NCBI GenBank assembly: GCA_049319925.1
Contig: JBMORS010000024.1
Coordinates: 1 to 24,629 of the forward strand
Length of the DNA stretch: 24,629 bases
Reading direction: 5' to 3'
DNA from: Patescibacteria group bacterium
GTDB lineage: Bacteria; Patescibacteriota; Patescibacteriia; Veblenbacterales; UBA10138
Shown: positions 1,822 to 5,104 of the stretch, one piece after another
How positions within the stretch are numbered: the first letter of the stretch is position 1
Layout of the letters: each line of letters starts with the position of its first letter
Notes under the pieces: model-generated
What the model was told of the DNA's origin: nothing
Database searches by the model: none
The model's input: the letters and a program-made list of their open reading frames with translations, nothing else
Program-made: the position numbers and the translations under genes

Positions 1822-4053
1822 ATGAGTAATGTAAAAACATTCAAGCATGAAGTGGCTGGTCGGCCGCTAGAAGTGGAGGTTGGCAAATTAGCCGGCCAGG
1901 CCCATGGTTCTTGTACTGTTCGCTATGGCGATACAGTGGTTTTGGCTACAGTTGTTCAATCAGCCGAGCCTAGGGAAGGAACAGATTTCTTTCCTTTGAT
2001 GGTTGATTACGAAGAGAGATTATATGCGGCTGGCAAAATTAAAGGTTCACGTTTTATTAAACGCGAAGGTCGGCCGACAGATGAAGCTATATTGACCGCT
2101 AGGGTAATAGACCGTTCTATTAGGCCATTATTCAAGGATAGTGAACGCCGTGATGTCCAGGTAATGGTTACGGTTTTGTCGGTTGACGGTGAAAACGATC
2201 CAGACGTACCGGCTTTATGGGCTGCTTCTTTGGCCTTGGCTATATCGCCGATTAATTGGGGCGGCCCGATTGCCGCTTTAAGGGTTGGTCGCATTAATAA
2301 TGAGTGGGTTTTAAATCCTTCTTACGAAGCCAGAGAAAAGTCTGATTTAGATGTTTTTATTTCGGCCACGGATAAAGAAGTGGTTATGTTAGAAGCTGGT
2401 AGTAGCGAGGTATTGGAAGCAGATATATATGAAGCCATAGCTTTTGGACACAAACATATTGCTAAGATGTTTCCTTTTTTGCAGGAAGTTATTTCCGCCT
2501 GTGCTAAAACCAAAACAACTGAACCTGATGTAACAATTGAGAATAAAGAGCAGGAAGCCAAACTTAGGCAAAAAGTGGAGCAGTATTTGCAGGGAAAATT
2601 TGAACCCTTGTTTGCTGGTAATGGTAAGCAAACCTTTAAGCAAGGTTTACGGGAAATAGAAGCTGGTTTAGACGAAGCTTTGAAGGCTGACAACGAAGTC
2701 AGCAAAGAAGACAGAGTCAAAGGCTTAAAGATGATAGAGGCTTATTTGGATAAAGCCTCCCGCCGGTATGTTTTGGACAGTGGTAAAAGAGTGGATGGCA
2801 GAGCTTGGGATGAAATAAGGCCCTTATCAGCTGAGATTGGAGTTTTACCTCGTACACATGGCAGTGGTTTATTCCAGCGGGGCGAGACTCAGGTTCTATC
2901 GGTAGTTACTTTAGGTAGTCCAGGTGATGAACAAACTTTAGATGGTATGGAAGAAGACGGCAAAAAGCGTTATATGCATCATTACAATTTTCCAGCTTAT
3001 TCAGTGGGTGAAGTTAAACCAGTTCGTTCACCAGGCCGTCGGGAAATTGGTCATGGCGCTTTAGCAGAAAAAGCTTTATTGCCGGTTATTCCTCAGGATA
3101 AGGAAAAGTTTCCTTATACCATCAGGGTAGTTTCTGAGGTTTTGTCTTCTAATGGATCGTCTTCGCAGGCTTCCATTTGTGGTTCGTCTTTGGCTTTAAT
3201 GGACGCTGGTGTGCCGATTACGGCACCAGTGGCCGGAATAGCCATGGGACTTATTACTGACCCGGCTGACCCTAGCAGGTACGCTGTTTTAACCGATATT
3301 CAAGGGTTAGAAGATCATTCCGGTGATATGGATTTTAAAGTAGGTGGTACAGCTAAGGGTATAACAGCTGTTCAATTGGACATAAAATTAGGCGGTATTT
3401 CTTTAGCTATAGTGGAAGAAACTTTAAATAAGGCCAAACAGGCTCGGCTTAAAATATTAGATATTATGCTTAAGGCTATTGCCGCGCCTCGGCCGGAATT
3501 ATCTCCCTATGCGCCCAGAATAGTATCTTTCTTTATACCGGTGGATAAAATTAGGGATGTAATTGGTCCAGGTGGTAAGGTAATAAATGAGATAATAGCC
3601 GCTACTGGCGTATCTATAGACATAGAGGATAGTGGTTTAGTGATGGTAACTTCTAATAATGCCGAAATGTCTGTTAAGGCGATTGATTGGATAAAAAACC
3701 TTACTCGTCAGGTGGTAGTGGGTGAAATTTACAAAGGCAAAGTTACTCGTTTGATGAATTTTGGAGCTTTTGTGGAAATATTGCCCAGAACCGAAGGGTT
3801 GGTTCATATTTCCGAATTAGCTTGGGCCAGGGTTAATACGGTTCAAGATGTTGTTAAAGTTGGTGATGAATTGGAAGTTAAGGTAATAGAAATAGACGAT
3901 CAAGGACGGGTAAATTTGTCTCATAAGCAGGTTTTACCTAAACCAGAGGGTTATGTAGAAGATAATCAGGCTTCTTATCGTTCAGAAAGACCTAGCCGTA
4001 ATTTTGGTAATAATAATGGCCGGGATAGACATTCTCGTCCCCCACGTCGTTAG
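1822..4053 (+). CDS. pnp: Polyribonucleotide nucleotidyltransferase (PNPase)
   Basis: Two RNase PH domains (RREIGHGAL, SNGSSSQASICG, GDMDFKVGGT), KH (VIGPGGK) and S1 domains; AAGGAG at 1806-1811. Confidence 0.99.
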   Translation: MSNVKTFKHEVAGRPLEVEVGKLAGQAHGSCTVRYGDTVVLATVVQSAEPREGTDFFPLMVDYEERLYAAGKIKGSRFIKREGRPTDEAILTARVIDRSIRPLFKDSERRDVQVMVTVLSVDGENDPDVPALWAASLALAISPINWGGPIAALRVGRINNEWVLNPSYEAREKSDLDVFISATDKEVVMLEAGSSEVLEADIYEAIAFGHKHIAKMFPFLQEVISACAKTKTTEPDVTIENKEQEAKLRQKVEQYLQGKFEPLFAGNGKQTFKQGLREIEAGLDEALKADNEVSKEDRVKGLKMIEAYLDKASRRYVLDSGKRVDGRAWDEIRPLSAEIGVLPRTHGSGLFQRGETQVLSVVTLGSPGDEQTLDGMEEDGKKRYMHHYNFPAYSVGEVKPVRSPGRREIGHGALAEKALLPVIPQDKEKFPYTIRVVSEVLSSNGSSSQASICGSSLALMDAGVPITAPVAGIAMGLITDPADPSRYAVLTDIQGLEDHSGDMDFKVGGTAKGITAVQLDIKLGGISLAIVEETLNKAKQARLKILDIMLKAIAAPRPELSPYAPRIVSFFIPVDKIRDVIGPGGKVINEIIAATGVSIDIEDSGLVMVTSNNAEMSVKAIDWIKNLTRQVVVGEIYKGKVTRLMNFGAFVEILPRTEGLVHISELAWARVNTVQDVVKVGDELEVKVIEIDDQGRVNLSHKQVLPKPEGYVEDNQASYRSERPSRNFGNNNGRDRHSRPPRR

Positions 4054-4087
4054 GCTAATATTAGCCAAATAAATCTATAAAGGTTTT

Positions 4088-4120
4088 AATCTAGCCCCGC
4101 GTAAGTGGGGCTAGATTTTG
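4088..4120 (+). terminator. Intrinsic terminator after pnp
   Basis: 13-bp stem AATCTAGCCCCGC / GTGGGGCTAGATT (one G-U), GTAA tetraloop, short T tail. Confidence 0.85.
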
Positions 4121-4140
4121 TATAGTATAGTGTATTAAGC

Positions 4141-4201
4141 TGTGCTTATTTGTGTGGATAAATTGTGATTACTGTGGATAATGAACATAATATGTGCTCA
4201 T
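4141..4201. promoter_or_regulatory. DnaA-box cluster
   Basis: Two perfect TGTGGATAA (reverse complement TTATCCACA) at 4153-4161 and 4173-4181, with degenerate same-orientation TGTG-led 9-mers at 4141, 4164 and 4193. Confidence 0.65.
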
Positions 4202-4245
4202 AGTATATTTGGTTTTTTTGTTTAATTTTAGCCAAAAATAGCTTA

Positions 4246-4274
4246 TTGACTGATTTTAAAAAGTATGCTATATT
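4246..4274 (+). promoter_or_regulatory. Strong sigma70-type promoter upstream of an ORF-less structured region
   Basis: TTGACT (4246-4251) - 17 bp - TATATT (4269-4274) with extended -10 TG at 4266-4267. Confidence 0.75.
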
Positions 4275-4280
4275 AAAGAT

Positions 4281-4645
4281 GTACTTTGAAAAAGGAAAGT
4301 AAATAAAGATCTGGTGCTAGCTCAGAAATTTGGCCACAGTTCTTTTCTTACTGTCCTTTTTGGAACTGTTAACTGGTGGCAGTACCAAAAAAAATTTTGA
4401 AACAAAAAGCAAAAACGGCGCTTCTGCCTGAAAAAGGTGGGAGAGTAGCCACAGGACGGTAAGAACAAAGCGTACTTTATAATCTAGCCAGTGTACGCGC
4501 CTAATAAGTCGCTTGAGGATACATTCTTAGTAAGTCTCAAAACAATTTGGGATTTGCTAGGTAGCGCAAGCGTCGCAATTAAGGCGCCAGTACGCCATTA
4601 ATTAAGTTTTTTAAAAAATGGGCGCCTACTGGCGCCTATTTTTAT
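4281..4645 (+). ncRNA. Candidate ~360-nt structured non-coding RNA or long leader, family unidentified
   Basis: Bounded by a promoter and a terminator-like hairpin, with no long ORF. Helices 4312-4318/4381-4387, 4336-4342/4363-4369, 4345-4357/4453-4465 (13 bp), 4470-4475/4493-4498, 4510-4515/4567-4572. Confidence 0.45.
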
Positions 4646-4650
4646 TTTTA
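4582..4650 (+). terminator. Intrinsic terminator-like hairpin closing the candidate ncRNA
   Basis: Perfect 11-bp AGGCGCCAGTA (4582-4592) / TACTGGCGCCT (4627-4637), an inner CGCCATT/AATGGGCG stem, then ATTTTTATTTTT. Confidence 0.75.
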
Positions 4651-4668
4651 AATTTCTACAATACCCGC

Positions 4669-4697
4669 TTGAATAGGTTTGGGCTTTGGGTTATAAT
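4669..4697 (+). promoter_or_regulatory. sigma70 promoter of dksA/traR-lspA-comM
   Basis: TTGAAT (4669-4674) - 17 bp - TATAAT (4692-4697). Confidence 0.75.
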
Positions 4698-4738
4698 TAC
4701 TCCACCTTTATTGGGTGAATTTTTGTTTATTAAATATT

Positions 4739-5104
4739 ATGAATCCAGCTTTTATTGAAGAAATTAAACAGATTTTGAATCAAACTAGGGCCAGGCTTAA
4801 GGCGGAATTAGATTCCACCACATTAAGTTCAGCTGATAAATCAGATAAAAATGCTTGGCCGGAATATGGCGATAAGGAAGATGAAAACGCCGCTGAAGTG
4901 GCGACTTTTTCCGATAAGTTATCTTTGCATAAGGCCTTAGAAGAAACCTTAGAAGATGTGGAAGCCGCTTTGCAGCGTTTAGCAGATGGCAGTTATGGAA
5001 TTTGTAAACATTGTCAAAAGGAAATAGATGAACGTCGTCTTAGAGCTCGGCCGGAGTCCAGTTCTTGTGTGGATTGCAAAACCAGGCTCTTAAATAAACC
5101 TTAA
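4739..5104 (+). CDS. DksA/TraR family C4-type zinc finger protein
   Basis: Coiled coil followed by YGICKHCQKEI...RLRARP....CVDC. The in-frame ATG at 4739 is preferred over GTG 4715, which lies about 10 nt from the predicted TSS. Confidence 0.9.
   Translation: MNPAFIEEIKQILNQTRARLKAELDSTTLSSADKSDKNAWPEYGDKEDENAAEVATFSDKLSLHKALEETLEDVEAALQRLADGSYGICKHCQKEIDERRLRARPESSSCVDCKTRLLNKP

Follow-up and report, generated by a model that had tools for sequence, protein, structure and literature searches.

The plus strand of the DNA studied here very probably carries, at positions 4281–4650, a genuine, new, stand-alone gene for a structured RNA. The DNA is contig JBMORS010000024.1 of a Patescibacteria group bacterium (the host; assembly GCA_049319925.1), and its full length of 24,629 nt is referred to as the window. 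As judged by comparison of genomes, the gene belongs to a family that is conserved, single-copy, non-coding, and without a catalogued relative, and that is found in a large part of the candidate phyla radiation (CPR)/Patescibacteria. A first-pass annotation of the window had proposed at this place an orphan transcription unit encoding either a novel non-coding RNA or a highly diverged housekeeping RNA. The former proposal agrees with our results: the RNA is conserved, single-copy, structured, and covarying, and it matches no Rfam family even at relaxed thresholds. Conservation and covariation in relatives, which the annotation had named as checks together with the relaxed Rfam search, were both found (21 of 21 family genomes; 28 base pairs with two-sided changes).

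Transcription unit and distribution of the gene family

Judged by its sequence signals, the region is a stand-alone transcription unit. The promoter recognized by the first-pass annotation matches the consensus at 10 of 12 positions in a promoter scan and has a TG extension, and the TTGAC and TG.TATA.T elements are kept in all 15 aligned intergenic regions. The terminator was likewise recovered. The terminator scan found a stem at 4614–4643 followed by a T-run, which is a portion of the longer two-part hairpin 4582–4637; an alternative local hairpin (4620–4636) lies within it. The separate downstream promoter at 4669–4697, which had also been predicted, matches the consensus at 10 of 12 positions. 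A hairpin and T-run (4083–4117, CTAGCCCCGCGTAAGTGGGGCTAG TTTT) are located directly 3' of pnp and likely form the terminator of that gene. With a pnp terminator at this position, the RNA unit would be insulated at both sides.

The earlier statement that the unit contains no long open reading frame (ORF) holds. The largest frames in the region comprise 31–48 amino acids and start with TTG or GTG; within the RNA, no ATG frame is longer than 7 amino acids. No ATG frame is conserved among 20 family members, and the frames of 19 relatives vary in both position and length. A small-protein gene was therefore ruled out, because the frames are short and none is conserved.

The host assembly comprises 835 kb in 191 contigs and is estimated to be ~95% complete; the window is its contig C24. 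The RNA sits within a 685-nt spacer between pnp (1822–4053, plus strand) and a DksA/TraR zinc-finger gene (4739–5104, plus strand). A blastn search detected this spacer in 14 of 20 family genomes. Wherever pnp and the DksA-like gene are both on the locus, it is situated between them, and its length in 12 relatives is 608–744 nt. The conserved blocks in an alignment of 15 spacers correspond to the DnaA boxes, a palindrome, the promoter, blocks of the RNA, the terminator, and the second promoter. A family-level covariance model of the 3' domain (R1) identified one copy in each of the 21 family genomes, which represent 14 genera. The copy of genome G002 (L013) has an insertion of ~116 nt in the 5' leader/P1 region, and that of its congener G015 (L012) is without it.

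R1 was too narrow outside the family: it matched 5 of 151 genomes, among them a false positive (L044) in repeat-like coding sequence. Other families have an ORF-free stretch of 500–850 nt with a DnaA box upstream of a DksA-like gene, and an nhmmer profile of the family matches such stretches with E values down to 5.6e-9. The shared core comprises a pyrimidine-rich strand of helix P2 with UACU, an optional P3, AAAYAAAAAYAAAA, P4, ACCA, and a purine-rich P2 strand with GGUA. A class-level covariance model (R2) gave one match per genome in 71 of the 151 sampled genomes of the class under strict filters. With the filters off, weak matches appeared at the right place in seven of nine further dksA loci that match poorly. 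R2 also matched 14 genomes from other classes of the phylum. The length of the RNA across its carriers is ~330–430 nt.

The promoter is conserved beyond the family as well. In 40 of 41 loci, a promoter that matches the consensus at nine or more of 12 positions is located 4–164 nt upstream of P2; 39 of these promoters have the TG extension, whereas only 2 of 180 control windows reached this threshold with a TG. The 41 loci are what remains of 43 without the R2 matches L134 and L135 (29–31 bits), which are probable false positives; L134 is embedded in long ORFs.

When named genomes were scanned with a sequence pattern, AT-rich chance matches polluted the result; among the matches listed, 24 of 80 records were confirmed at 41 bits or more. 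The labels among these listed matches are Parcubacteria group, Falkowbacteria, Veblenbacteria, Buchananbacteria, Patescibacteria group, and one "bacterium", and no named non-CPR isolate was confirmed among them. The confirmed records among the matches listed also include seven metagenome-assembled genomes labeled "uncultured Gammaproteobacteria" (L138, L140, L147, L148, L166, L180, and L192), which carry the RNA at 43–67 bits. Five of the seven have a DnaA 8-mer or the DksA-like gene downstream. In L166, the order pnp-RNA-dksA is complete, and the PNPase is 68% identical to that of the window. The labels of these seven genomes look wrong.

Predicted fold and covariation

The 370-nt stretch has a minimum free energy (MFE) of −123.7 kcal/mol, compared with −90.6 ± 5.7 kcal/mol for its shuffles (z = −5.81). 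RNAalifold predicted 46 pairs from 14 sequences, 30 of them with compensatory changes. In family alignment A5, 49 pairs were counted (P2, P5, P6, P7, and both terminator stems). The paired state is retained in 89.8% of the cells, vs 76.9% in shuffles (none of 500 reached the observed value) and 42–51% with the partners slid, and 28 of the 49 pairs have two-sided changes. A5 contains 20 of the 21 family genomes; the G002 copy was omitted from it and from alignment A1 on account of its 116-nt insertion and because it is a near-duplicate of the G015 copy. More than 28 base pairs have compensatory changes, which indicates selection on RNA structure, beyond selection on the DNA alone.

The fold is predicted to consist of two domains (Table 1). 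The 5' domain contains P1 and the multiloop of P2, and the 3' domain contains P5, P6, and P7. The first-pass annotation had noticed a complementarity of 13 bp, with one G-U, between TTCTTACTGTCCT (4345–4357) and AGGACGGTAAGAA (4453–4465). This pairing is present as helix P2 and is supported by covariation. P2 is a polypyrimidine/polypurine helix of 13–16 bp with an invariant core of U-A, A-U, C-G, and U.G. Among 51 sequences outside model building (alignment A6), 94.2% of the P2 cells are paired and 12 of 14 pairs have two-sided changes. All 51 sequences retain the C-G pair and 49 retain the U.G wobble (U4352/G4458); the position beside the wobble is mismatched in 15.

The annotation had placed the 5' strand of P2 in the loop of a hairpin (4336–4369) and had considered the long-range pairing to give a pseudoknot or an alternative fold. 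The helix stands, but its pseudoknot status does not. The arms of the hairpin are complementary in the window; however, the hairpin is absent from the consensus folds and clashes with supported helices. Because this hairpin is not conserved, P2 is not a pseudoknot; it is an ordinary helix that closes a multiloop with P3, the A-rich strand, and P4. Two of the other proposed helices (4312–4318/4381–4387 and 4513–4517/4536–4540) met the same fate: they are complementary here, but do not occur in the consensus folds and clash with the supported P1, P3, and P6. The remaining two, 4470–4475/4493–4498 (P5) and 4510–4515/4567–4572 (P6), are supported by the relatives.

The support for the individual elements is as follows. 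The apical stem of P1 has two-sided changes in the RNAalifold alignment. A hairpin is found at the position of P4 in relatives when judged by eye, uncounted because of register shifts in the alignment. The A-rich strand between P3 and P4 is unpaired in the consensus folds. In the family alignment, P5 is 79.2% paired with an imperfect register, and helices 3 and 4 of the 3' domain (P6/P7) are 96.7% and 96.3% paired, with two-sided changes in six of nine P6 pairs. The terminator helices (7 and 8) are 89.9% and 88.3% paired, and 8 of the 11 pairs of the outer stem have two-sided changes.

In this fold, the true pseudoknot is a predicted loop-loop contact in which the P3 loop (4372–4377) pairs with the P5 loop (4487–4492). 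The loop pair in this RNA is ACUGGU/GCCAGU, and complementarity between the two loops is retained through at least 15 different sequence pairs, such as CUCCGAC/GUCGGAG, UCCUUAUC/GAUAAGGA, GCUAACU/AGUUAGC, and UUGGCC/GGCCAA. Loops chosen by MFE and complementary runs over whole regions were noisy; therefore, stem-anchored loops (n = 32) were used. When each loop was paired with its own partner, the mean of the longest complementary run was 5.94, vs 4.19 with foreign loops, and runs of at least six occur in 69% of own pairings vs 15.7% of foreign ones. Over the whole region, RNAduplex gave −15.3 kcal/mol for self and −14.3 kcal/mol for non-self combinations. Four loci from other families (L065, L066, L085, and L086) have no P3 hairpin, and their A-rich strand directly follows P2. 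Where P3 is missing, the kissing contact would be dispensable or replaced.

Table 1. Features of the RNA locus, with positions in the window.
Feature	Position	Strand	Description
DnaA box 1	4153–4161	−	perfect TTATCCACA; (near-)invariant in 15 aligned intergenic regions
DnaA box 2	4173–4181	−	perfect TTATCCACA; 20 bp from box 1
Inverted repeat	4183–4201	.	GAACAT..ATGTGCTC; consensus GAGCAC-N5-7-GTGCTC; in the interval from the DnaA boxes to the promoter
RNA promoter	4246–4274	+	−35 TTGACT, 17-nt spacer, extended −10 TGCTATATT (TATATT)
RNA gene	4281–4650	+	predicted transcript of ~370 nt; 5' end from the −10, 3' end from the terminator T-run
P1 5' hairpin	4305–4344	+	RNAalifold and MFE; apex length varies in relatives
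P2 5' strand	4345–4357	+	TTCTTACTGTCCT; pyrimidine-rich; includes invariant UACU
P3 hairpin	4358–4390	+	MFE; loop ACUGGU 4372–4377
A-rich strand, single-stranded	4391–4415	+	UUUGAAACAAAAAGCAAAA; class consensus AAAYAAAAAYAAAA; A columns invariant
P4 hairpin	4416–4450	+	MFE; followed by conserved (G)ACCA / CCACA junction
P2 3' strand	4453–4465	+	AGGACGGTAAGAA; purine-rich; includes GGUA
P5 hairpin	4470–4498	+	GCGUAC/GUACGC; loop GCCAGU 4487–4492
3' domain	4508–4574	+	P6 4508–4515/4567–4574 plus 4517/4565
Internal loop beyond P6, conserved, 8 x 3	4518–4525/4562–4564	+	GAUACAUU / UAG
P7	4526–4529/4558–4561	+	variable apex
Two-part intrinsic terminator	4582–4650	+	outer stem 4582–4592/4627–4637; inner stem 4593–4599/4617–4624; T-run 4639–4649
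dksA-type gene promoter	4669–4697	+	10/12 consensus matches; −10 kept across the family

Upstream DnaA boxes and neighboring genes

The conserved element begins farther upstream than the first-pass annotation had supposed, with two DnaA boxes (4153–4181) and a palindrome (4183–4201). An AT-rich stretch follows the box pair. Family members that lack box 2 have a TGTGGAT box directly after the −10 instead. The host genome contains 15 perfect DnaA boxes, and the two described here are the only pair within 30 bp. Of 43 loci, 26 have a DnaA 8-mer in the 420 nt upstream, usually 60–135 bp before the −35, compared with none of 108 control windows; it is also present in 22 of the 24 confirmed named records among the matches listed. 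In many lineages, for example at loci L081, L072, L078, and L088 of other families, the consensus DnaA box is accompanied by a second, related box, GGGGATAA. The arms of the inverted repeat covary among relatives when compared by eye, uncounted, and the repeat may be a regulator site or a DNA/RNA hairpin.

DnaA-regulated promoters are known, for example, those of dnaA and sda in Bacillus subtilis. The arrangement here resembles them in that one to three consensus boxes either overlap a sigma-70-type promoter or lie upstream of it at a fixed distance. It differs from them in that the product is a structured non-coding RNA and in that the arrangement is kept across many families. If confirmed, this would be the first large structured bacterial RNA known to us with a promoter linked to the replication initiator.

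The downstream gene of the window (PF01258, 33.6 bits) is followed by lspA and a gene for a ComM-like ATPase. Of 43 loci, 29 have a DksA-like gene downstream on the strand of the RNA, 27 of them within 550 nt, and such a gene is also found in 17 of the 24 named records among the matches listed. The upstream neighbor is pnp in 8 of 43 loci. Other neighbors are genes for a CCA-adding enzyme, a cytidylate-kinase-like protein, and LspA or Lgt, and a DinG-like helicase gene occurs in four loci of other classes. The RNA is 5–67 kb from dksA or on the opposite strand in four genomes (G047, G073, G080, and G110) and is present in three without a DksA match (G040, G050, and G113). Its own terminator, the second promoter in front of dksA, and the remote or dksA-less copies indicate that the RNA is independent of dksA.

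Identity and possible role of the RNA

No match at the gathering score was obtained when the whole window was searched with the 4227 families of Rfam 15. At E ≤ 10, positions 4050–4760 gave sub-threshold chance matches only, the best of which reached 26.4 bits where the gathering score is 60, and 20 homologous loci gave tRNA only at E ≤ 0.01. No description of this RNA was found in the literature as far as it was accessible to the search, outside of which bioRxiv supplements lay, and no CPR-specific RNA class was found in Rfam or in the same part of the literature.

The proposal of a highly diverged housekeeping RNA was not borne out. No transfer-messenger RNA (tmRNA) was detected by ARAGORN in the window, and the region 4281–4650 has no match to RNase P RNA (RF00010). 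The host tmRNA lies on contig C128 (99.3 bits) and its RNase P RNA on contig C138 (226.8 bits); both identities are excluded because these genes are on other contigs. The annotation had suggested looking for ssrA, rnpB, ffs, and ssrS elsewhere in the genome, which succeeded for tmRNA and RNase P RNA and failed for signal recognition particle (SRP) RNA and for 6S RNA. The SRP RNA models RF00169 and RF01854 gave no match on the region and none in the host genome at E ≤ 10 or E ≤ 1, and RF00169 had none in 61 relatives. The M domain of Ffh (PF02978) was found neither in the 61 relatives nor in any of 151 genomes taken from across the phylum. Searches for the SRP GTPase domain (PF00448) in the host, five one-contig genomes, and five named CPR genomes yielded no more than P-loop matches below the threshold, and the DTAGR motif is absent from the six-frame translation of the host genome. 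The SRP searches gave matches in all 14 control genomes. The RNA shares with SRP RNA (4.5S/scRNA) a housekeeping-type character and a size comparable to its long forms; in contrast, it matches neither SRP RNA model, and the Ffh M domain was not found in the genomes sampled. SRP RNA is thus excluded by the negative covariance models, and further because its protein partners Ffh and FtsY were not found. The SRP pathway appears to be missing in the host and the sampled relatives; our literature search found nothing on such an absence.

We propose that the RNA would act in trans as a folded scaffold. A partner, most likely a protein, would thereby be offered the A-rich strand and the helix with the U.G pair, and synthesis of the RNA may be tuned by DnaA, that is, by the replication status. 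It is possible, and we suggest this tentatively, that the partner belongs to the transcription machinery (RNA polymerase or the DksA-like factor), with the RNA working like a regulator of the 6S or Ms1 type without membership in that family. Hfq was considered as a partner of the ARN-like A-rich strand and was rejected because no Hfq (PF17209) was found in the host genome. An antisense function of the A-rich strand was also rejected: its 17 complement sites (at most one mismatch) are all T-rich and of low complexity, and none is compelling.

Several points weigh against the overall interpretation. The link to DksA or RNA polymerase comes from gene order alone (29 of 43 loci), and gene neighborhood is weak evidence. 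Both the transcript and its ends are deduced solely from sequence signals, and the RNA is without the end-to-end rod and central bubble by which 6S mimics an open promoter. The distribution is incomplete: 80 of the 151 class genomes have no match under the strict filters, the matches from other classes are limited to 14, and the class of a Saccharibacteria-labeled record gave one weak match in 41 genomes. In addition, the kissing-loop statistic was obtained with a custom script of our own, and A6, which consists of the 51 R2 matches outside model building, was fitted to the structure of the model. Alignment A4 was assembled partly by a search for P2 complementarity; therefore, its P2 count is partly circular. 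The column counts omit P1, P3, P4, and the kissing loop, which were dropped because of MAFFT register shifts among the sequences.

CPR/Patescibacteria account for a large fraction of bacterial diversity, and to our knowledge, almost nothing is known of their RNA biology. If confirmed, a single-copy, two-domain, pseudoknotted RNA of ~370 nt would join the large structured RNAs of bacteria, to which additions are rare. It raises the questions of what reads the U.G helix and the A-rich strand, whether DnaA controls the promoter, and how replication is coupled to expression in reduced genomes. Among the known RNAs, the raiA motif, a large structured RNA of Firmicutes and Actinobacteria that adjoins raiA and has a family in Rfam, is similar in being a single-copy, pseudoknotted RNA of a few hundred nucleotides upstream of one regulatory gene, with a function not evident from sequence. 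It differs in its fold, its phylum, and its neighbor (raiA there, a DksA-like gene here); in addition, the promoter here has DnaA boxes, and the region has no Rfam match at E ≤ 10 beyond the sub-threshold chance matches. OLE, ROOL, and GOLLD are large, "ornate" bacterial RNAs with families in Rfam. The present RNA is likewise large, highly structured, lineage-restricted, and without a known biochemical role at its discovery. Unlike them, it is smaller, is a chromosomal single-copy core gene not associated with phages or plasmids, and matches none of their models.

A closer relationship to 6S would make the RNA the 6S or Ms1-type RNA of the lineage, either diverged or analogous, whose A-rich strand serves as a pseudo-template on RNA polymerase. 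We consider this unlikely. The host genome has no match to RF00013, and the RNA has a strong promoter, a single copy, wide conservation, and a conserved unpaired strand of 16–25 nt between helices, as do 6S or Ms1. It also has a genomic link to a gene for a DksA-type factor (PF01258), and factors of this type bind the secondary channel of RNA polymerase. However, the region matches no 6S family at E ≤ 10, and the structure disagrees with a 6S rod in both the consensus and the MFE folds: the 5' and 3' ends are unpaired, two domains joined by a kissing loop are formed, and the long strand of the multiloop is one-sided. Only ~3–4 nt lie opposite this strand, so that no bubble resembling an open promoter is formed. 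Moreover, 6S RNA is about half the size of this RNA.

Somewhat less likely still, the RNA might form the core of a ribonucleoprotein or ribozyme that is specific to CPR and has housekeeping rank. Such a particle might provide a DnaA-controlled, DksA-linked coupling of replication and transcription, or it might supply a function that these bacteria, apparently without Ffh, FtsY, and SRP RNA, obtain by no known route. If this were true, the RNA would join the short list of RNAs conserved broadly in bacteria (rRNA, tRNA, RNase P, tmRNA, SRP, and 6S).

We regard it as improbable that the RNA is a ribozyme or self-assembling RNA in which the invariant U.G of P2 would be the active or recognition site; functions of this kind have been proposed for other large, ornate RNAs of bacteria. 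The complex fold with its long-range pseudoknot, the clustering of invariant nucleotides in the P2 core and the junctions, and the retention of the wobble beside a frequently mismatched position are consistent with such a function, but the RNA has no similarity to the ribozyme families of Rfam, and no sign of processing was seen.

A cis-acting leader, that is, a riboswitch or attenuator of the DksA-like/lspA operon that terminates at 4582–4650 or reads through, is slightly less probable again. It would account for the frequent position of the DksA-like gene downstream on the same strand, and four GC-rich segments that are mutually complementary (4496–4502, 4583–4588, 4620–4626, and 4631–4636) would allow alternative pairings. 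However, in either alternative fold a GC-rich stem remains immediately before the T-run; therefore, no anti-terminated state is evident. The dksA gene has its own conserved promoter beyond the terminator and is not always adjacent: the RNA is remote or on the opposite strand in four genomes and occurs in three without a DksA match, and at other loci the neighbors are a CCA-adding enzyme, a DinG-like helicase, or lspA. In addition, we know of no riboswitch class as large as ~370 nt.

Least probable is an interpretation of the DnaA boxes as oriC or a DnaA-titrating site, with the "RNA" as an origin-associated sequence or an activating or primer transcript: the perfect boxes 20 bp apart before an AT-rich stretch, their uniqueness as a pair in the host genome, and their conservation across lineages would fit, but the GC skew is positive on both sides throughout the window and does not change sign at the locus in two complete relatives, the flanking genes cross the site on one strand, the boxes keep a fixed position relative to the promoter, and the compensatory changes in the RNA are those of a conserved structure. 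Elsewhere in the host genome, contig C96 contains three perfect DnaA boxes, at positions 1425, 8642, and 9854, and may be the dnaA/oriC region.

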